Positions 4,667 to 55,273 of a stretch of 57,534 bases of DNA are shown here, one piece after another. The DNA is taken from IMG/VR virus record IMGVR_UViG_3300045988_071636, positions 1-57,534 of that record; one strand, 5' to 3'. The notes beneath the pieces were generated by a model. That model did no database searches, was not told where the DNA came from, and worked only from the letters and a program-made list of their open reading frames with translations. This DNA comes from a virus. Position 1 is the first letter of the stretch, and every line of letters begins with the position of its first letter. A program made the translations under genes and the position numbers.

Positions 4667-5038
4667 ATGAGTGATAATGTCGTGAGCATTCAGGATAGAG
4701 TGATGCCCGTTCGCGTCATTGACAATAAGACCGAGACGGCGTATGAACTTGATTTTAGCAGAGAAAGCGTTAAATTTGCCGAGAATCGTGGCTTTAAGGC
4801 GGACGAGCTGACAGTGTTCCCGGTGACTAGAATCCCGGAGCTGTTCTACTATGCTTTCCGAAAAAATCACAAGAATGTAGCCCGGTCTCAGACTGATGCC
4901 CTGCTGGATGGTATGGGCGGGATGACAAGTGCTCTTCTGGAACGTCTGGTTCAGCTCTACAATCAGGCAGCCCTTACCCACCTGATTGCAACTGACGAGG
5001 ATGCGGCAAAAAACGCAGAGGTGACTGTGGAGCTGTAA
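4667..5038 (+). CDS. Tail assembly chaperone (gpG analogue)
   Basis: GAGGAGG RBS then ATG 4667. 123 aa, sitting directly before the -1 frame ORF and the tape measure gene. Confidence 0.8.
   Translation: MSDNVVSIQDRVMPVRVIDNKTETAYELDFSRESVKFAENRGFKADELTVFPVTRIPELFYYAFRKNHKNVARSQTDALLDGMGGMTSALLERLVQLYNQAALTHLIATDEDAAKNAEVTVEL
5008..5014 (+). other. Programmed -1 ribosomal frameshift slippery heptamer A_AAA_AAC
   Basis: Zero-frame codons are gcA AAA AAC. The -1 frame from 5014 is open with no stop through 5101 to 5418. Confidence 0.8.
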
Positions 5039-10800: not shown

Positions 10801-11173
10801 ATTAGGCGGAGAAAGATTTGGCCTAAACATTCCAACTGTAAAGCTGGGAAGAGTAAATTTCGAAATGGGGAGCTATGCGTTTGGCGGTTTCCCAGACCAC
10901 GGCGAAATGTTTATTGCCAGAGAACAAGGCCCTGAGCTAGTGGGCCGTATCGGGAACCGGACAGCGGTAGCAAACAATGATCAGATTGTGGAGGGTGTTG
11001 CTGCTGGTGTGACATCTGCCAACGATGGAGTAATCAATGCTATCTATGCCATGGCCCAGCAAATCATTTCCGCAATTGAAGAGAACAGCGGAGACGTTTA
11101 TCTGGATGGGGATAAGGTCGGAGAACGAGTAACGGAATACCAAAATAGGAAGAATCGCATTTTTGGCAGATAA
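7829..11173 (+). CDS. Tape measure protein
   Basis: 1114 aa from ATG 7829. N-terminal coiled coil, Gly/Ala/Ile-rich hydrophobic core and a duplicated WWNNN(I/V)(A/S)PWFTLEKW(S/T)G motif. Canonical position. Confidence 0.9.
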   Translation: MAVDIDSLQIEIEATSSDAAAKIDALATALASLKTVAKGGAGLTTVSNQMQALANAAKLINSSSLNTAKLKEMTSALNGLSFIQKSSGLSSTINALKKLPQISESLEKADLGKFAVQMNQVVDAMRPLATEMQRVSSGFSAFPIRIQKIIQSNTGLAASNSKAAKSFGVFGNGITSALAKLSIYGFTIKQVYGYAKSWVTSATDYIENVNLFQVSMGEFYDEAFAYAELLNDRLGIDPSEWMRAQGVFMSMTNGFGLARQQAYDLSEGLTELAYDLSSLYNESTEQSILRLQSALSGEIEPIRRLGISISQATLQEYALAHGINESVVSMTEQEKALLRSLVLMEGAGRIGAIGDFARTLESPANAMRVLSQQITQLGRALGTVLLPIIVQIIPWVQAFVEVLTDAIKTLAIWVGFTMPEWDTNDWAGGIVSGGEDAEDAINGVTNATKELKKALLGIDELTILEPTNAGGAGGTGGNSGWGSDLEIPNIWDKDAISGIKTKADELKGILEEILYDYVLPIGAAFAAWKILGLLNNLGVATSLVSDLKKAVAGGIIAYLEFKLVKGSFDNFLSADGSIWDLIKAALYTAIGSGILYYMFGPAGLVVGLGVSLVASIISLATSISGGLDYNGLKANIMKAISTGLGGGIGFVLGGAAGGTIGLLVTAGITFTITSIMANLSGQVDSGTLENAINILLGAIASGISGAAITMLLGIAGGPVGFLIGATISFVVQGVSMNWGDITSWAKEWWSDLTAEIVGIWDDQTLSVPAKITAIGMAIVGGILSGIVDAIAGIGTWLYNNLVAPIINGVKSLLGIHSPSTVFMEIGQNIIEGLLQGISGTWSSIINFFTIEMPKWWNNNIAPWFTLEKWSGLVSSIGTSIKNVWNSTVGQWITDISAWWNNNVSPWFTLEKWTGILSGILGAFSSVWDNITSGFDKFKNVFSSGWDTFWGKVGGVVAGAINGVISAVENGINWVIKKLNSLSFTIPDWVPLLGGERFGLNIPTVKLGRVNFEMGSYAFGGFPDHGEMFIAREQGPELVGRIGNRTAVANNDQIVEGVAAGVTSANDGVINAIYAMAQQIISAIEENSGDVYLDGDKVGERVTEYQNRKNRIFGR

Positions 11174-11193
11174 ATTTTAAATTGGAAGAAAGG

Positions 11194-23074: not shown

Positions 23075-23317
23075 ATGGAGGACGTGAGGATACAGGGTTG
23101 GTACACGTCGCCGCCCTCCTCACGGACTCCTTATTTTATGGACAAGGACGTGTTGGATATGACTCTAATCGAGAGAATGGTAGCCGCTGGCATGTCCCGC
23201 GATTGTGCCGCCGAAACAGCGATGTGGTACATGGCACAGGGAGATGACGAGGGCCTAGAGGATTACGTAACCGCATTGGAGGCGGGGAAGGAGGCGCGTC
23301 AGTATGGCGTTTCCTAA
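23075..23317 (+). CDS. Hypothetical protein
   Basis: 80-aa ORF. The start is uncertain (alternative ATG 23138) and the RBS is weak. Confidence 0.4.
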   Translation: MEDVRIQGWYTSPPSSRTPYFMDKDVLDMTLIERMVAAGMSRDCAAETAMWYMAQGDDEGLEDYVTALEAGKEARQYGVS

Positions 23318-47836: not shown

Positions 47837-48439
47837 ATGAGAATCGGATATGTGCGAGTATCTACGGAGGAACAGAACACCGCTCGACAGGACGAGTTGA
47901 TGAAGGAGCTCGATGTCGAGAAGGTTTATACGGATAAGGCGAGCGGAAAAGACAGGGAGCGACCCGGACTGAAAGAGATGATGAATTTCGTCCGGGAGGG
48001 CGACACGGTTGTTGTTGAGAGTATCAGCCGGTTTGCGAGGAGCACAAAAGACCTTCTTAATTTGATTGAGGAATTGAAGGGCAAGGGCGTAGAGTTCTAC
48101 TCGAAGAAGGAAACATTTGATACCACCACTCCGCAAGGCAAGTTTGTGATGACGATGTTTGGCGCACTTGCAGAGTTGGAGCGCGAGCAAATCATGCAGA
48201 GACAGGCGGAAGGTATCGCAGAGGCGAAGAAGAAAGGAAAGTACACAGGAAGAAAGCCCATTGCGGTCGATGAAGATGCTTTTACAGAGCAGTATCGAGC
48301 CTGGAAAAATGGAGAGACTTCCCCGAAGTTCATTTGCAAGAAGTTGGGGTTAAGCCACGCCACATTTTATCGTAGGGTTAAGGCGTATGAAGAAAAGCAT
48401 GGGATAATCAAAGTGGAGGATAAAAATGGGAAAGAATAA
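47837..48439 (+). CDS. Small serine recombinase (resolvase/invertase family)
   Basis: MRIGYVRVSTEEQNTARQ (catalytic Ser motif), ...VVVESISRFARS..., and C-terminal HTH ...KKLGLSHATFYRRVK. 200 aa. Confidence 0.9.
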   Translation: MRIGYVRVSTEEQNTARQDELMKELDVEKVYTDKASGKDRERPGLKEMMNFVREGDTVVVESISRFARSTKDLLNLIEELKGKGVEFYSKKETFDTTTPQGKFVMTMFGALAELEREQIMQRQAEGIAEAKKKGKYTGRKPIAVDEDAFTEQYRAWKNGETSPKFICKKLGLSHATFYRRVKAYEEKHGIIKVEDKNGKE

Positions 48440-49073
48440 TTGGTGCGTCTACCGTCACACATTCCCGAACGGAAAGGTCTATATTGGGATAACGAGCCAA
48501 GAGCCAGAGGAAAGATGGGCTGGTGGAACGGGCTACAAGTACAACGATGAAATGTACAACGCCATTTTGTATTATGGGTGGAGAAATGTTGCACATGAAA
48601 TTCTTTATGATGGACTTGACGAGACGACAGCACGAAAGAAAGAGGCGGAGTTGATTTTAGAGTTTGGCATTGATGGTAGAGAAAGAACATACAACACCTC
48701 TCACACAAAATATCCCGGAGCGCCGAATTTGTCTTGGATCGATTTGAAAGTGAGCGAGGAAACGGTAAAGCAACACTGGCTTGACTTTGAATTGCTGGAC
48801 GATTATTGGATGGAAACCTATATTCAGCAGATGGGCGCACACCCGTTTGGTTGCAGGATTAAAGAGAACGGCGTTGAAATGACATTTTATGTGCCTGATG
48901 GCGAATATATTGTGAGCAAGGCATTATTTTTGAGACACCCAAGAAAGAGTGTAACATTTAGGGAAGTCCATAAGTGGCTATATACTGCTCCAAAAGCAGA
49001 GGTTAGAACGGACGAAAATTTCAAAATTTCTAAAAAGCAGCTTGCGGAGATGGCACAATCAATGGGGGCGTGA
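48426..49073 (+). CDS. GIY-YIG nuclease-domain protein (putative homing endonuclease)
   Basis: WCVYRHTFPNGKVYIGIT (GIY...YIG), ...R...E... core. 215 aa. Confidence 0.7.
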   Translation: MGKNNWCVYRHTFPNGKVYIGITSQEPEERWAGGTGYKYNDEMYNAILYYGWRNVAHEILYDGLDETTARKKEAELILEFGIDGRERTYNTSHTKYPGAPNLSWIDLKVSEETVKQHWLDFELLDDYWMETYIQQMGAHPFGCRIKENGVEMTFYVPDGEYIVSKALFLRHPRKSVTFREVHKWLYTAPKAEVRTDENFKISKKQLAEMAQSMGA

Positions 49074-49968: not shown

Positions 49969-51603
49969 ATGGAAATTCGGGAGCTGGTGAAGAGGGCGTT
50001 CAAGCGTGACCTCTCCGACCCGTCTGCGTTATCTGATGCCTTTGACACGTTGCGGCTGCTAGAACCAGAAGATTTTACCTTGGCCCATGAGCGAAACAAG
50101 GAAGTACGTCGGCTGTCCGCAAGATTCGCCGCAGAACAAAAAAGCCTCCGTATGTTCGAGCTGAACAAGCGGAGTCTGCTGTTTGACGCGCCGTATGATT
50201 TTGACGCACACTGTCGGTATATTGAGTGGAACCGCGAACCTTCAAAGAGGTTCTACTTGCCCAGACGGAAGCAGTTATATAGGGTTGCAAAGGCGTTGCA
50301 ACGATTGGCAGATAATGAACTAGACTTGCTGGCGATTTCTCTTCCCCCTGGAGTGGGAAAGACCACATTGGCTCTGTTCTTTCTGACCTGGATTGGAGGG
50401 AGAAACCCAGAAAAGCCAATCCTGGGGGGGTCTCATTCGAACGCATTTTTGCGCGGAGTATATGACGAGTGTATTCGTATTATGGACCCGCAGGGGGATT
50501 ATCTTTGGTATAACGTGTTTCCGTCAGTCAAGGTGGTCAAGACCAACGCCCAGGATATGATGATTGACCTTGGAACAGACCCAAAGAGGGGAAAGCGCTT
50601 TGCAACATTGGAGTTCTCGTCTGTTGGGTCAGGAAATGCAGGTAAAGTCCGAGCTGAAAATCTGCTTTATTGTGACGATCTGGTTGATGGTCTGGAAAGC
50701 GCGCTCTCAAAGGAGCGCATGGACAAGCTCTGGAATCTGTATGCAACGGATTTACGGCAACGAAAAATTGGAGACTGCAAGGAGCTCCATATTGCGACTC
50801 GATGGTCGATCCACGATGTTATAGGACGATTGGAACAGTCCTACGAGAAAAGTGACCGAGCGGAGTTTATCGTCATGCCAGCACTAAACGAGAATGACGA
50901 AAGCAATTTTGACTATGGGAACCATGCTGGATTTACTACTGCGTTTTATCATGAGCAGAGAGAAGTAATGGATGATGCAAGCTGGCGGGCGCTTTACATG
51001 AATCAGCCCATTGAGCGCGAAGGGCAGCTCTACAATGAGGATGAGCTGCGCAGGTATTTTGAGCTTCCTGATGGGAAACCAGATGCAATCCTGTTTGTCT
51101 GCGATACGAAAGACAAGGGAACTGACTACTGCGTCATGCCAATTTGCTATCAGTACGGAAATGACTTCTATTGCGAAGACGTGGTATGTGACAACAGCAA
51201 TCCAGAGGTTGTAGAGGCGCGCTTAGTGTCGAAACTCCTTCAGCACAAGGCGCAAATGGGGCAGTTTGAGAGTAATAGTGCTGGTGGGAAAGTAGCAGAG
51301 AAAGTACAGAAAGATGTGAAAGAGGCTGGCGGTATAGCGAAAATCACCACAAAATATACGACACAGCAAAAGGAAACAAAAATCATAGTGAACTCGCCGT
51401 GGGTGAAAGACCATGTGCTGTTCAAAGACAACTCTGTCATAAAGAAGGACAAGGAATATCGAAGGATGCTCAACTTCCTTTGCGGGTATACGATGGCAGG
51501 TAAAAATAAGCATGATGATGTTCCTGATGCTTGGGCAATGTTTGCTGAGTATGTTCAGCAACTCGAAGGGAACAAAGTAGAGGTGTTCCGCCGTCCATTT
51601 TGA
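49969..51603 (+). CDS. terL: Terminase large subunit
   Basis: 544 aa. Walker A in LPPGVGKTT, Walker B-like LLYCDDLVD, nuclease half with ATRWSIHDVIGRL. Confidence 0.9.
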   Translation: MEIRELVKRAFKRDLSDPSALSDAFDTLRLLEPEDFTLAHERNKEVRRLSARFAAEQKSLRMFELNKRSLLFDAPYDFDAHCRYIEWNREPSKRFYLPRRKQLYRVAKALQRLADNELDLLAISLPPGVGKTTLALFFLTWIGGRNPEKPILGGSHSNAFLRGVYDECIRIMDPQGDYLWYNVFPSVKVVKTNAQDMMIDLGTDPKRGKRFATLEFSSVGSGNAGKVRAENLLYCDDLVDGLESALSKERMDKLWNLYATDLRQRKIGDCKELHIATRWSIHDVIGRLEQSYEKSDRAEFIVMPALNENDESNFDYGNHAGFTTAFYHEQREVMDDASWRALYMNQPIEREGQLYNEDELRRYFELPDGKPDAILFVCDTKDKGTDYCVMPICYQYGNDFYCEDVVCDNSNPEVVEARLVSKLLQHKAQMGQFESNSAGGKVAEKVQKDVKEAGGIAKITTKYTTQQKETKIIVNSPWVKDHVLFKDNSVIKKDKEYRRMLNFLCGYTMAGKNKHDDVPDAWAMFAEYVQQLEGNKVEVFRRPF

Positions 51604-51628
51604 AATACAAAATGTTGTGTATAACGAC

Positions 51629-51657
51629 TTGATTGATAATATATATTGTGGTATAAT
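51629..51657 (+). promoter_or_regulatory. Near-consensus extended -10 promoter in front of the tRNA/ncRNA island
   Basis: TTGATT 51629-51634, 17-nt spacer, TGgTATAAT (-10 at 51652-51657). Confidence 0.6.
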
Positions 51658-51660
51658 AAA

Positions 51661-51699
51661 GGCGGATAGATATTTGCCCATATCCGCCAGGTTTCTTTT
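51661..51699 (+). terminator. Hairpin plus T-rich tract after terL
   Basis: GGCGGATA 51661-51668 / TATCCGCC 51681-51688, then AGGTTTCTTTT. It begins only 4 nt after the -10 box, so its role relative to that promoter is unclear. Confidence 0.4.
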
Positions 51700-51762
51700 C
51701 CAACCTCCTTCACACGGACGGGGTGGCGGCGGTGCAGCCGCTGCCCCTACTGTGTGGAATAT

Positions 51763-51837
51763 GCCCTTGTAGCTCAATGGTGAGAGCGATACCCTGATTT
51801 GGTATAGTGGACGCCGGTTCGATTCCGGCCGAGGGCT
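51763..51837 (+). tRNA. tRNA-like gene with an atypical anticodon loop CUGAUUU (nominal anticodon GAU, Ile) and a 7-nt variable region
   Basis: Acceptor GCCCTTG/CGAGGGC. D arm GCTC-AATGGTGA-GAGC. Anticodon stem ATACC/GGTAT. T arm GCCGG-TTCGATT-CCGGC. No encoded CCA. Confidence 0.6.
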
Positions 51838-52126
51838 TGGTGACCCGCACTTTTTGCGGTAGCCAACTTATTAAACCGCTCCAAAGGCCACGGAGCTGAC
51901 TGTGGAAAGACACTACACCAGATTGCCGGAGCGTCTAGGCGCTGGGAAGAGTAAGACGCGAGCCGCCTGTCATGGGGGCGGAGCTAAAAAAGCGGTAGCA
52001 GCTATGACCTGCCCCGGCGCTATCCCGCTGAAAACTGCCGTGCGTACCATCCAGAGTTGTAGGTCAACTTTGGGCGCAGAAGGCGTGAGCATCTAAGCGG
52101 GAGAAGCGCACAAATAGGAGAAGAGT

Positions 52127-52279
52127 ATGAGGGTTACGAAGGAACTGGCGCGTGAGATTTGCCGGGAGTTGGGAATTGAGTGGGATGAGAACGCTTGTGA
52201 GCCCACACTACAGGGGGAATCCATTTCGGATATAGACATGGAAGAACTTTTTCACTTCTTTTCGCGCAGGAGAGGATAA
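52127..52279 (+). CDS. Hypothetical small protein (50 aa)
   Basis: TAGGAGAAG RBS then ATG 52127. Below the ORF-track cutoff. Confidence 0.4.
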   Translation: MRVTKELAREICRELGIEWDENACEPTLQGESISDIDMEELFHFFSRRRG

Positions 52280-52280
52280 A

Positions 52281-52436
52281 GTGCTGGAATTAGTCAAAAT
52301 TATTGCAGAATTTATCTGCCTTGTCCTCATGATTGTGAATGCTTACTTAGCGTTCAAAGCAAAGGATAAAGACGACCTGATTGGAATGGTTTGGAATTTG
52401 GCATTTATGATTCTTATGAGCACTTGTATTAAATAA
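52281..52436 (+). CDS. Small membrane protein (51 aa)
   Basis: AGGAGAGG RBS then GTG 52281. Two hydrophobic segments. Confidence 0.4.
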   Translation: MLELVKIIAEFICLVLMIVNAYLAFKAKDKDDLIGMVWNLAFMILMSTCIK

Positions 52437-52665
52437 GTGGGATGTGCAAAAAAGTTGCAAAATCCGCGGCCGAAAATAAGGCCATATAAATAGCATAACC
52501 ATTGCAACACAAGAGGTTTATGGTGGCCGGAAAAACTTTAGGATCGGCTCAAAAAGTTATATGCCGAGTGCTGTAGCAGAAGCGCCTGCGGCGGCCCGTT
52601 ACGTCGCGGACGTGTGGCGGCTCAATACCGCCTCTCGGCTCCAAAACTGAAACGGTGGTGAAAAT

Positions 52666-52845
52666 ATGCCAACCTATCGAAACGGCCGTATCTGCTTGAA
52701 TAGAAACGAAGCAAGAAGATTTTACAGGCAGACTATCCACCCATCTGAGGATACCGCAAGGCTGAGAGACAAATACCTGGACGAAATTGATAAAACGTTA
52801 GAAATCAAGCCGACAAGGGATGGTGTAGTCCTGAGCCGGAAGTGA
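52666..52845 (+). CDS. Hypothetical small protein (59 aa)
   Basis: GGTGGTG RBS then ATG 52666. Below the ORF-track cutoff. Confidence 0.4.
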   Translation: MPTYRNGRICLNRNEARRFYRQTIHPSEDTARLRDKYLDEIDKTLEIKPTRDGVVLSRK

Positions 52846-53408
52846 CATGATATGCCGCTCCTCGCCGCATGAGGCGGGCGGTGGCGCCAGATGTATGGCA
52901 CCACAGGTTAAAAGCAGACGGGCCTTCCTTGTGCGCTGTGCGAAAGCGGCAAGGTGAAGAAATTATTTTTGGCTGACCCCGGCCCTATAAAGATGAACGG
53001 TTCCGACTGACGACACCAGCGGAGGGGTTGAGATGTACCGTGATTGCTATACGATGAAACTGGCCTACCCCTGTGAGGCTGACGGATGTAGGTGTGGTTC
53101 CGGCTGTCTTAGGACAAGGCCGGATTGTAACAGGACGGCTGACGAAGATTCGTATAGTAATTGTGATGTGATACCGCATAGCGGATTACATACCATTGAG
53201 CGGTGGCGGAATAGACACTAATTGTGGTAAAACTGGTGCGATTACCAGCAATAGTAGACGCCGACAGTGAAGAAGGGTAACCGTCTGTGAAGAACAAAGC
53301 AACAGCGGCGAAGTCGTGGGCGTAGAGGTCTGGTGAGGTCAGCAATGATCAAACAGGCCCGCGGAAAGCCTGACCAAACCCGCAGCATACCCCGAAAGGG
53401 GTATATCT
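52846..53408 (+). ncRNA. Candidate large structured ncRNA (about 560 nt) abutting tRNA-Met; possible ROOL/GOLLD-class RNA
   Basis: No convincing ORF. Dense short GC hairpins, some with GNRA loops (for example 53387-53404 ATACCCC-GAAA-GGGGTAT; also 53099-53124, 53225-53247, 52927-52954). Phage context next to tRNAs. Confidence 0.4.
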
Positions 53409-53482
53409 GGACCATTGGCCCGATGGTCGGGCGGGCCCCTCATAAGGGCTTGGTCTTGGTTCGATTCCAAGATGGTCCACCA
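53409..53482 (+). tRNA. tRNA-Met (anticodon CAU; could also be an Ile2/lysidine type) with encoded CCA
   Basis: Acceptor GGACCAT/ATGGTCC. D arm GCCC-GATGGTC-GGGC. Anticodon arm GGCCC-CTCATAA-GGGCT. T arm CTTGG-TTCGATT-CCAAG. Ends A-CCA. Confidence 0.85.
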
Positions 53483-53508
53483 GAATTAGAAAGGAGTCGC
53501 CCAACTGA

Positions 53509-53676
53509 ATGAAGATTGACATTTATTGTCCGGTCTGTGCCGCTGCTGGCATCAATCATGGAAAAGGGCGGCTTTTGATGCAGGTGGATAGCAAAACAAC
53601 TGGTATAGTTTATCCATACTGTAAGGCTTGCAAGAAAAACATCAAGATTGAGTTAAAAGGCGATAAAAGCGCCTGA
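53509..53676 (+). CDS. Com-like zinc-ribbon protein (55 aa), candidate post-transcriptional regulator
   Basis: ATG 53509. IDIYCPVCAAAG...YPYCKACKKNIKIEL has two CxxC pairs spaced as in Mu Com-type zinc fingers. Below the ORF-track cutoff. Confidence 0.5.
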   Translation: MKIDIYCPVCAAAGINHGKGRLLMQVDSKTTGIVYPYCKACKKNIKIELKGDKSA

Positions 53677-53689
53677 GAATATATAGTTT

Positions 53690-53737
53690 AGTGCCAAGTG
53701 CCTCTGGGCAATGCCTGGACGAAGCGTGCCGAGTGCC
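53690..53737 (+). promoter_or_regulatory. Late-leader element D: GTGCC box pair before the portal gene
   Basis: AGTGCCAAGTGCCT at 53690-53703 and GTGCCGAGTGCC at 53726-53737. Confidence 0.6.
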
Positions 53738-53781
53738 GAGAGTAGACCTTATACGGGTCTGTTCTTGGCACTTTTTTGTTT
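53733..53781 (+). terminator. Strong intrinsic terminator whose 5' arm starts inside box D2
   Basis: 16-bp stem 53733-53748 / 53756-53771 (three G-U pairs), then TTTTTTGTTT. Confidence 0.75.
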
Positions 53782-53797
53782 GTCTGGAGGTGACAGA

Positions 53798-55273
53798 GTG
53801 ACTGAAAACTATACTGTTCGAGCTATATCCGAGTGGCCTGCTGAGGGTCTGACAGGGCGCAGAAAAATCTACACCGCAAAAAAGAAGGTTGCACCGGAAA
53901 ATGTGGTGGATGTGCTGGGCAAGGCACTGGCTGTGCATCGCATGAACATGGCAGAAATGTCCTATTTGTATGGCTATTACAAAGGGAAACAGGACATTCG
54001 CCTGAAAGATAAAATTGTCCGTCCTGAAATCAACAACAAAGTGATGATTAATCGGGCGAACGAGATTGTCACATTCAAGACAGCCTATCTACTGGACGGC
54101 CCTATCCGATATGTGTCCAATGGCGGAGAAGATGATGTTTCTGCCAGCGTGAACAAGCTCAATGAGTATATGCGCGCTGAGAGCAAGGACACGCTGGACA
54201 AGGAACTGGCGGACTGGATGCACATTTGCGGTGTTGCGGTACGCATGGTACTCCCTGACGAAGCCGGAGAGGAAGACGGGTCCCCCGCCTCGATCTATAC
54301 CATTGACCCGATGGCAGCGTTTTGCATCTACCACAGCGGCGTAGGCCAGAAAAAGGTTGCCGGTGTGCTGGAACAGGTGGACGAGGAGGGCCAGCCCTAC
54401 TTCTGCGTGTACACCACTGAGTGGTATTTCGAGGTGCAGAACAGAAAGATCACAAAGCAGGAAGCCCGCACCATCCCCTATATCCCCATTGTGGAGTATG
54501 TAAACAATGACGCCCGCATGGGTGCGTTTGAGCCGGTTATTCCCATTTTGAATGCCATCAATATGATTGAGTCCAATAGATTGGACAGTATTCAAGATTT
54601 CGTCAACGCTTTTGACGTGTTCCAAAACTGCGAGTTGGAGAACGGACAGTATAAGGAACTGGCAAAGGGCGGCATGGCAATCACCATCAAGAGCGTTCAG
54701 CCCGGCATGGAGGCCAAAGTATACCGCATTGCGTCTGAACTGAACCAGACCAATACGCAGACCATTGTGGACGATTTGGAGGACGCATATCTGACCATCT
54801 GCGGGATGCCAAACCGGAATGGAGGTTCCTCTACCAGTGATACCGGGCAGGCGGTCATTTACCGTGATGGGTGGTCTGCCGCTGAGAGCCGGGCCAAGGA
54901 CACGGAAAAGACCTGGGAGCGGTCGGAACGGGAGTTCCTGCGGCTGGTGCTGTATATTTGCCGGGAAACTGGCGATTTAGATTTGCAGCTATCCGACATT
55001 AAGCCGGAGTTCACCCGCAAGAACCTGTCCAATATCCAGTCCAAGGCGCAAGTGCTGGCGGAGATGCTGAACAACAGCAAGATTCATCCGAAGTTGGCGT
55101 TCCAGTACAGCGGGCTATTCAGCGACCCCGAATCTGCGTACCGTGTGAGTATGGATTGGTACGAGGAACAGCAACGCAAGATGGAGCGGAGTTTGAGAGA
55201 TGAACTGAATAAAAACAGGGACACAAATATAACTGCGGAGGAAAGAAACAATGATGTCTCCGTTTCGGAATGA
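53798..55273 (+). CDS. Portal protein (SPP1 gp6-like)
   Basis: GGAGGTG RBS then GTG 53798 (the ORF track ATG 53711 lies inside the terminator leader). About 491 aa. ...YLYGYYKGKQDI... typical N-terminal region. Confidence 0.85.
   Translation: MTENYTVRAISEWPAEGLTGRRKIYTAKKKVAPENVVDVLGKALAVHRMNMAEMSYLYGYYKGKQDIRLKDKIVRPEINNKVMINRANEIVTFKTAYLLDGPIRYVSNGGEDDVSASVNKLNEYMRAESKDTLDKELADWMHICGVAVRMVLPDEAGEEDGSPASIYTIDPMAAFCIYHSGVGQKKVAGVLEQVDEEGQPYFCVYTTEWYFEVQNRKITKQEARTIPYIPIVEYVNNDARMGAFEPVIPILNAINMIESNRLDSIQDFVNAFDVFQNCELENGQYKELAKGGMAITIKSVQPGMEAKVYRIASELNQTNTQTIVDDLEDAYLTICGMPNRNGGSSTSDTGQAVIYRDGWSAAESRAKDTEKTWERSEREFLRLVLYICRETGDLDLQLSDIKPEFTRKNLSNIQSKAQVLAEMLNNSKIHPKLAFQYSGLFSDPESAYRVSMDWYEEQQRKMERSLRDELNKNRDTNITAEERNNDVSVSE

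Follow-up and report, generated by a model that had tools for sequence, protein, structure and literature searches.

The stretch analysed here, called the window, covers positions 1 to 57,534 of the IMG/VR virus record IMGVR_UViG_3300045988_071636 and, judging by the layout of its open reading frames (ORFs), looks like a complete phage genome of about 57.5 kb in circularly permuted form. The subject of this report is a structured non-coding RNA (ncRNA), designated D, which is encoded between terL and the portal gene (Table 1). The end of terL at 51603, the start of the portal gene at 53798 and the gap of 2.2 kb between them, as given in a first-pass annotation made from the sequence letters, were borne out by PHROGs and Pfam. 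The gap contains two tRNA genes, both of which had been expected and were called, and four small ORFs. Three tiny ORFs had been listed before and all are present, but a fourth exists at 53509-53676. The near-consensus promoter proposed at the head of the gap was found again as a sigma-70-type promoter-like site, and the gap is closed by a terminator-like hairpin that was absent from the earlier list. As these two sites flank it, the gap is best read as an inserted non-coding cassette (51629-53773, about 2.1 kb) with putative start and stop signals of its own.

Table 1. Predicted features of the interval between terL and the portal gene, in window coordinates
Feature	Position	Strand	Remarks
terL	49969-51603		PHROGs and Pfam
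Sigma-70-type promoter-like site	51629-51657	+	TTGATT-17-TGgTATAAT; 10/12 consensus matches, TG extension; cassette head
Leader hairpin	51661-51700	+	GGCGGATA..TATCCGCC then U-rich tract; fold z = -3.15
Module A	51704-51762	+	CCUCCUU tract then long GC-rich hairpin; z = -4.95, 0/200 shuffles; about 18-20 other loci
tRNA-Ile(GAU)	51763-51837	+	ARAGORN and Rfam, 59.9 bits; CCA not encoded
Module B	51895-52045	+	Structured RNA of about 150 nt; 35-42 other loci, 73-98% identity
Small ORF, 50 aa	52127-52279	+	Without Pfam or PHROG match; between modules B and C
Small hydrophobic ORF, 51 aa	52281-52436	+	MLELVKIIAEFICLVLMIVNAYLAFK...; without Pfam or PHROG match; between modules B and C
Module C, tRNA-like cloverleaf	52563-52643	+	6-bp acceptor stem, two arms, T-arm GGCGG-CUCAAUA-CCGCC, UCCA end
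ORF, 59 aa	52666-52845	+	Window-specific insertion between module C and minihelix
tRNA-like acceptor/T-arm minihelix	52854-52889	+	6 + 6 bp, discriminator G + CCA; -22.6 kcal/mol; 5' boundary of D
D RNA	52890-53165	+	Structured, non-coding, about 276 nt; 265 loci with one copy each; covariation
D stem P0, variable	about 52896-52925	+	Suggested by eye
D helix P1	52927-52954	+	Conserved 7-nt loop GUGCGAA/GUACGAA; AU-rich linker next
D helix P2	52972-52983	+	
D helix P3	52997-53041	+	Inner hairpin and conserved internal loop
D long-range helix P4	53042-53054 with 53150-53163	+	Encloses variable 3' domain
D hairpin P5	53099-53124	+	5-bp + 4-bp stem, 2-nt bulge, usually AG
Hairpin P6	53166-53191	+	AUGUGAU-ACCGC-AUA-GCGG-AUUACAU; only window-type and L004-type sequences
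Lineage-specific insert	53195-53349	+	7-10 loci align; contains hairpin 53225-53247
Module E	53350-53404	+	Hairpins CAGGC..GCCUG and AUACCCC-GAAA-GGGGUAU; z = -2.61; about 26 loci
tRNA-Met(CAU)	53409-53482	+	ARAGORN and Rfam, 57.8 bits; CCA encoded
ORF, 55 aa	53509-53676	+	CxxC...CxxC (zinc-ribbon-like); inside cassette; weak PHROG 19114 match, function unknown
Intrinsic-terminator-like hairpin	53731-53773	+	19 pairs and T-run; 25 nt 5' of portal start
Portal, SPP1-type	53798 (GTG start)		PHROGs and Pfam

The first-pass annotation had singled out 52846-53408 as an ORF-free, hairpin-rich stretch and as a candidate for one ornate RNA of about 560 nt. The stretch itself is real. Only mechanical ORFs of at most 78 amino acids (aa) are found in it, none of them conserved, and it ends 4 nt before tRNA-Met. 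Its minimum free energy has a z of -3.45 on the plus strand, with 0 of 100 shuffles as good, and of -1.62 on the minus strand, and it is conserved in other phages far beyond chance. It is, however, no single RNA but a mosaic of the minihelix, the conserved unit D (about 276 nt), a hairpin with an insert, both clade-specific (53166-53349), and the small module E, after which tRNA-Met follows. In L004, L109 and similar loci the insert is missing and the equivalent of 53193 is joined directly to that of 53350. Two hairpins described before, 52927-52954 and 53099-53124, are real and covary as P1 and P5 of D, respectively, although the loop of the former is a conserved 7-nt sequence and not the GNRA-type loop supposed. 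The GAAA-looped hairpin at 53387-53404 is likewise conserved and belongs to module E. That at 53225-53247 lies inside the poorly conserved insert, and that at 53337-53375 lies partly in it; its 3' half alone overlaps module E, and the conserved hairpin of module E is a different one (about 53354-53372).

The fold of D is conserved among its homologues. In a MAFFT alignment of 28 sequences, 97.2% of the cells of helices P1-P3 pair, compared with 86.0% in shuffled and 32-56% in slid controls; both sides have changed in 12 pairs, against 6.0 +/- 1.0 in shuffles, and the covariation score is 0.279 against 0.095. The observed value was reached by 0 of 500 shuffles in every measure. When 43 diverse sequences were aligned to the model, 97.7% pair (85% shuffled, 31-56% slid), 14 of the 26 pairs are compensated, with 111 compensated cells, and the covariation score is 0.322 (0.100 shuffled, at most 0.059 slid). 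The covariance model of P1-P3 has a single match in the window, at 52923-53044 with 134.9 bits, the runner-up having 12.4 bits.

Helix P4 was detected by RNAduplex in 43 of 44 representatives, with the start at the first base after P3 in 41 of them and at +3 in two; its 3' end is mostly ..UUG or ..CUG, directly before UG or UA. More than 12 helix sequences without relation to each other maintain its pairing, among them GAUUGCUAUACGA, GAUUAUCAAGGCUGU, GGUUGGUUCGGGUGCCGG, GGGAUACCGGCAUUGC, GAUGAAAAGGGUGAU and GGUUUUUCAGAGGCG. Of the inner stem of P5, 11 versions were found that are compensated by Watson-Crick changes, and in a second architectural type the exact complement is at the expected place in 44 of 47 sequences, compared with 3 of 376 when stems were swapped. 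Neither an ungapped best-helix search (P4) nor a generic search for stem-bulge-stem elements (P5) discriminated from shuffles, and both were discarded. MAFFT with RNAalifold yielded no usable consensus over the 3' domain because the arms of P4 share no sequence, and per-sequence duplex and anchored motif tests were used instead. Besides P5, conserved GAGGC and GGAUGUGGUGUGG-like tracts are present in this domain. Covariation-supported structure in homologues, on which the first-pass annotation had made its ncRNA depend, is thus found for P1-P5. Several G-U pairs are conserved as well, at two positions in 34-39 of 43 sequences; these would become A-C mismatches on the opposite strand, so the fold of D is specific to the plus strand.

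D starts nearly always directly after the NCCA end of a tRNA or of a tRNA mimic. The minihelix precedes it in the window, and in other loci a true tRNA 3' end occupies this place. According to their folds, the minihelix and the cloverleaf of module C fit a coaxial stack of acceptor and T-arm, about 12 bp long and with the discriminator and CCA after it, and the inner stem of the minihelix covaries with L072-type loci (CUCGCC/GGCGGG replaced by ACCGGG/CCGGGU). Neither of them was called by ARAGORN or the Rfam tRNA model, which called only tRNA-Ile and tRNA-Met. Within 2.5 kb of D, a tRNA was predicted by ARAGORN in 121 of 235 unique loci, and the nearby tRNAs are on the same strand as D in 262 of 264 cases, with peaks directly 5' and directly 3' of it. 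Fourteen tRNA identities were found directly upstream, so D is linked to tRNA shape and to no single tRNA. A T-arm, acceptor strand, N and CCA directly 5' of D, required together in a strict test, were present in 109 of 171 unique sequences, compared with 60 of 1171 control CCA sites; most sequences failing this test have, by eye, NCCA followed by GAUGUA or UAGGCG. In loci without a tRNA call, a pseudo-tRNA or a minihelix of 6+6 bp precedes D. The non-coding island is thus made up of structured RNAs in series, with tRNAs and tRNA mimics as the punctuation between them. Related loci hold more pseudo-tRNAs, for example at 3858-3950 of L001. CCA is encoded in tRNA-Met and in every tRNA mimic of the window, and tRNA-Ile, where it is not, would require RNase Z and CCA addition.

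A BLAST comparison with GenBank phages gave short mosaic matches to three phages, two of Flavonifractor plautii and one from a faecal metagenome, and two short conserved strings derived from these matches were used to search IMG/VR. The 20-mer of P1 was found in more than 116 contigs and the 21-mer of P5 in 51, with constant spacing between them. A pattern of P3, independent of these strings, matched 11 species genomes, including F. plautii ATCC 29863 (prophage locus L149, NZ_JH417714.1), Colidextribacter sp. OB.20 (L146), Oscillibacter, Ructibacterium, other Oscillospiraceae, metagenome-assembled genomes (MAGs) of Clostridia and MAGs from rabbit gut that had been binned as Lachnospiraceae and Alistipes. 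This pattern also occurred in more than 120 metagenome contigs, most of them from human gut. Altogether D has exactly one copy per locus in 265 loci from IMG/VR phages, human-gut metagenomes and Oscillospiraceae genomes; the phages and prophages that have D belong to gut Oscillospiraceae and related Clostridia. Its core is 74-98% identical among phages with unrelated terminases. Only two GenBank phage records carry it, both metagenomic and unannotated. Two cultured Flavonifractor phages are without D; Chenonceau (L003, 3001-3281) has module A, the minihelix and module E, and Castelnaud (L002, 3001-3339) has modules B and C. In both phages HNH, terS and terL follow downstream of these modules, which the annotation there gives as hypothetical proteins.

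Across all loci compared with the window, the conserved blocks are A (51700-51775), B (51875-52045), C (52550-52650), D (52850-53200) and E (53350-53404), and the core of the D block is shared by 134 loci. The blocks are modular; they may be lost or spaced by differing inserts, and D comes before B in L023 and L105. In L109 a tRNA-free island of about 1.1 kb lies after a small helix-turn-helix gene and runs into a convergent gene. Of the sequence between the blocks, 52050-52290 is missing from all other loci, 52291-52436 is found in just five, and 52650-52850 is unmatched in any other locus, the spacer there being 77 nt in L109 and 205 in the window. Elsewhere 52050-52550, 52650-52850 and 53200-53350 are rare or lacking, so the small ORFs, together with some tRNAs, are considered insertions into a conserved non-coding island. 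The 51-aa ORF that follows the 50-aa ORF has 88% identity in five other islands and could code for a small membrane peptide inserted in the RNA island.

Terminases, portal and cysteine desulfurase are among the neighbours of D, but none of them is universal; the clustering of neighbour genes was swamped by spurious ORFs over the RNA itself. In one clade, with L001 (5104-6276) and about 15 related loci, a class-V aminotransferase/cysteine-desulfurase-like gene (Aminotran_5, E = 3.5e-41) is located about 1.9 kb downstream of D, and a 91-aa ORF (4762-5037; HU-like by eye) lies upstream of it in L001. As cysteine desulfurases supply tRNA thiolation, the neighbourhood of D may be tRNA-themed. DUF3800-VIII and int-alpA RNAs, with matches exceeding the Rfam gathering scores, were found within 0.4-2 kb of D (L072, 1155-1219 and 3657-3721; L129, 2263-2333), so the islands collect several orphan RNA motifs.

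Regarding the other modules, B was seen by eye to contain an H-type pseudoknot (CCAG..CUGG around GCGUCU, which is paired with a downstream AGACGC) and two hairpins. Its compensatory changes, also by eye, include GCGUCU/AGACGC to CCGUC/GGCGG and CCGCC/GGCGG to CCCC/GGGG, with 4 of 5 pairs kept in L146. Module C is conserved in 20-32 loci. The CCUCCUU tract of module A (51704-51710) is identical to the anti-Shine-Dalgarno core of 16S rRNA and is kept in L109, L130, L080 and L136. The leader hairpin at 51661-51700 could stabilise the 5' end, act as an attenuator or be the terminator of terL, and L109 has a hairpin with a U-tract at the analogous place (11166-11193). Directly upstream of terL, at 47837-49073 on the plus strand, a DNA invertase of the serine-recombinase type (Resolvase, E = 4e-46) is encoded, together with a GIY-YIG gene resembling those of homing endonucleases.

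With Rfam 15 at the gathering score, the two tRNAs and RAGATH-31 were the only matches in the whole window. The latter is a full-length copy of an orphan phage-associated motif at 23077-23130 (+), with 81.6 bits where the gathering score is 71.8. When the threshold was relaxed to E <= 10 for 51550-53850, tRNAs and noise were obtained, and no match to ROOL, GOLLD, HEARO or group I and group II introns, the models named in the first-pass annotation, nor to any ribozyme, tmRNA or T-box; module B also matched no family there. In 12 homologous loci searched at E <= 1, no match was found over D, with tRNAs, DUF3800-VIII RNA and int-alpA RNAs nearby. HEARO and both intron groups were rejected on the search at E <= 10, tmRNA, with its tRNA-like ends and tag reading frame, was detected neither by ARAGORN nor by Rfam, permuted forms included, and Y RNA, T-box, RNase P RNA, 6S, SRP RNA and phi29 pRNA had no Rfam matches. 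A hammerhead reading of CUGACGA was rejected as well, since this segment covaries as a helix. No paper describing D was found in literature searches, and its motif strings were not found in the first 200 of 408 files of a human-microbiome paper.

The ROOL/GOLLD label proposed for the stretch in the first-pass annotation did not hold, as RF03087 and RF01998 were unmatched in the window at the gathering score, over 51550-53850 at E <= 10 and in the 12 homologous loci. ROOL and GOLLD are structured ncRNAs of phages and prophages, usually located by tRNA islands and without known protein partner or function, and the GOLLD linker sometimes contains tRNAs (PMC12286853). The island of D resembles them in its phage setting and in the tRNA genes nearby, and it resembles GOLLD in that tRNA or tRNA-like elements separate the 3' unit, D, which is widespread, from the 5' unit, B, which is less so. 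Unlike both, D is 2-3 times smaller, abuts NCCA exactly, has variable unit order and lacks similarity to their models. A divergent ROOL or GOLLD RNA would share the setting in phages and prophages, beside tRNA genes and with function unknown (PMC12286853), but the size of D, about 276 nt where the conserved multi-pseudoknot fold of ROOL has about 580 nt and GOLLD, with its conserved 3' domain, usually exceeds 800 nt, and the helices and conserved sequences of its own leave this identity, rejected on sequence and structure models, only a minute probability. The alternative of a new large phage ncRNA was closer. A structured phage ncRNA beside tRNA genes it is, but a mid-sized one and no giant. 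D is its own family within a known kind, the phage tRNA-island RNAs.

Theta ribozymes, which are minimal ribozymes like that of hepatitis delta virus (HDV), occur in gut Caudoviricetes at the 3' ends of phage tRNAs, to within +/-1 nt, and cleave there in vitro (bioRxiv 10.1101/2023.06.13.544163). D is similar to them in its occurrence in gut phages on the same strand as the tRNA, and its 5' end is at the tRNA 3' end within the same +/-1 nt. These ribozymes are small and fold as nested double pseudoknots, with P1 beginning at the cleavage site directly 3' of the tRNA and a catalytic C in J4/2, whereas D has about 276 nt, another helix layout and a variable first base. HDV-like Rfam families were unmatched at E <= 10, a result that concerns the Rfam models only, as the theta descriptor itself was not applied, and by reading of the sequence no complement to the first 7 nt of D was found at the place needed for an HDV-like P1. 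The tRNA cluster of phage T4 also encodes stable non-tRNA RNAs, species 1 and species 2, of about 120-140 nt and of unknown function, which host tRNA enzymes mature from the precursors that also yield the tRNAs. To our knowledge, these resemble D in layout only, belong to an E. coli phage and are unrelated in sequence. In tRNA punctuation and in MALAT1-mascRNA, a tRNA-like fold in a longer transcript recruits RNase P and sets the end of the neighbouring ncRNA. Those systems are mitochondrial or eukaryotic nuclear, and for D such punctuation would follow from the gene layout only.

Other origins of the conservation were considered. Translation of ORF 53033-53221 (62 aa), or of another small ORF, had been kept as an alternative in the first-pass annotation and might be suggested by GGAGGGG situated 7 nt upstream of the ATG in the window. 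That ATG, however, falls within the internal loop of P3 and is missing in 70 of 101 unique homologues (AAG or AAA instead), the ORFs of those retaining it range from 9 to more than 100 aa and are unrelated beyond four residues (MYRD), and the ORF overlaps the hypervariable domain within P4. The coding explanation is refuted by these comparative data and its probability is practically nil. Conservation could also lie in the DNA, as a pac/cos site, origin, recombination or attachment site, or the stretch could consist of decaying tRNA-gene spacers without function; the island is close to the packaging genes, where cos and pac sites are usually situated, and it is highly mosaic, like recombination hot spots. 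Protein-binding DNA sites would not need pairing that survives full helix replacement, and the conserved G-U pairs point to a strand-specific fold, so a role at the DNA level is very improbable. Neutral decay, given the same very low probability, disagrees with the identity of the core of D across phages with unrelated terminases.

Two alternatives keep the RNA but give it another task. If the region acted in cis as leader of the late (packaging/structural) operon, with portal and downstream genes under a processive antitermination or stability element, for instance, this would agree with a terminase or portal gene often 1.3-3 kb downstream on the same strand, with modules A, B, C and E directly upstream of HNH, terS and terL in Castelnaud and Chenonceau, and with the promoter-like site and U-tract hairpin that open the island in the window and L109. 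But a strong terminator-like hairpin stands between island and portal in the window, and the L109 island meets a convergent gene and is therefore no leader there; these two facts make a leader or antitermination role unlikely, though not negligible. The position and order of D relative to B vary, and the tRNAs on both flanks point to excision from a transcript. The other possibility is that D is a processing element for the adjoining tRNAs, a self-cleaving ribozyme or nuclease guide cutting at its own 5' end and so freeing the mature NCCA 3' end upstream, the job proposed for theta ribozymes of gut phages. It would explain why D starts right after NCCA for 14 tRNA identities, pseudo-tRNAs and minihelices alike, theta ribozymes do cleave at phage tRNA 3' ends in vitro (bioRxiv 10.1101/2023.06.13.544163), and a structured trailer of 276 nt past the encoded CCA would be hard for exonucleases. 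Against it stand the absence of HDV-like or other Rfam ribozyme matches even at E <= 10 and of a suitably placed complement to the first 7 nt of D, a first base after CCA that varies, with U in the largest clade and in other clades G, a length far exceeding the need of the task, and, in about half of the loci, an upstream minihelix or pseudo-tRNA with no obvious need of maturation. We regard this explanation as rather improbable. A new class of functional RNA with an activity coupled to tRNA ends, either as a large ribozyme or RNase P guide cutting precisely at the CCA-D junction or as a self-assembling ROOL/GOLLD-type particle bearing a covalently attached tRNA mimic, is unlikely but not negligible; the particle could serve, for example, as a decoy against tRNA-directed host defences. 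On this reading D, module B and the tRNA mimics would form a widespread 'tRNA-punctuated ncRNA operon' of human-gut phages.

D is therefore probably, though with considerable reserve, an uncatalogued family of tRNA-punctuated structured phage ncRNA and one unit of the mosaic cassette 51629-53773. In this cassette the structured RNAs A, B, D and E alternate with tRNA-Ile, cloverleaf C, the CCA minihelix and tRNA-Met, with small ORFs inserted in the window phage. A single plus-strand precursor would run from the promoter-like to the terminator-like site, and host tRNA-maturation enzymes would cut it at the tRNA and tRNA-like marks, RNase P at each 5' side. The CCA-D junction would be cut separately, and the product would be free D, or a fusion of minihelix and D protected by the tRNA-like 5' cap. 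D may then act in trans as a stable folded RNA, as is assumed for ROOL and GOLLD.

Several points weigh against this proposal. We infer the transcription, processing and trans action of D from sequence, and the promoter and terminator of the cassette are putative sites recognized as consensus matches only. Encoded CCA is an anti-determinant of RNase Z and blocks this enzyme, so the cut between CCA and D would need another agent, and this leaves some room for the ribozyme or guide alternative. A conserved protein partner near D was not found, the best real neighbour family being present at 34 of 145 loci. The 43-sequence alignment (A7) was fitted to the model, and the MAFFT-based results are the unbiased versions; moreover, a few major clades supply the diversity, so the cell counts exaggerate the number of independent events. 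A prediction from IMG/VR comprises 8,495 candidate RNAs, 29-151 nt long and unnamed ('DNAVirus_X'; PMC10690425), and pieces of D may be among them.

In the annotation, the 2.2 kb that separate terL from portal are accounted for by an inserted non-coding cassette. The family is abundant in human gut, its fold is compact and well defined, and its junction to tRNA 3' ends is exact. This exact CCA junction gives a sharp handle on how D would be made, namely which enzyme, or D itself, cuts there, and the family is present in cultivable hosts, F. plautii ATCC 29863 and Colidextribacter sp. OB.20. ROOL and GOLLD are among the largest bacterial RNAs of no known function and were recently shown to form RNA-only cages. 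A third, unrelated family would make the link between tRNA islands and orphan RNAs a general one in phage biology and no quirk of two families.

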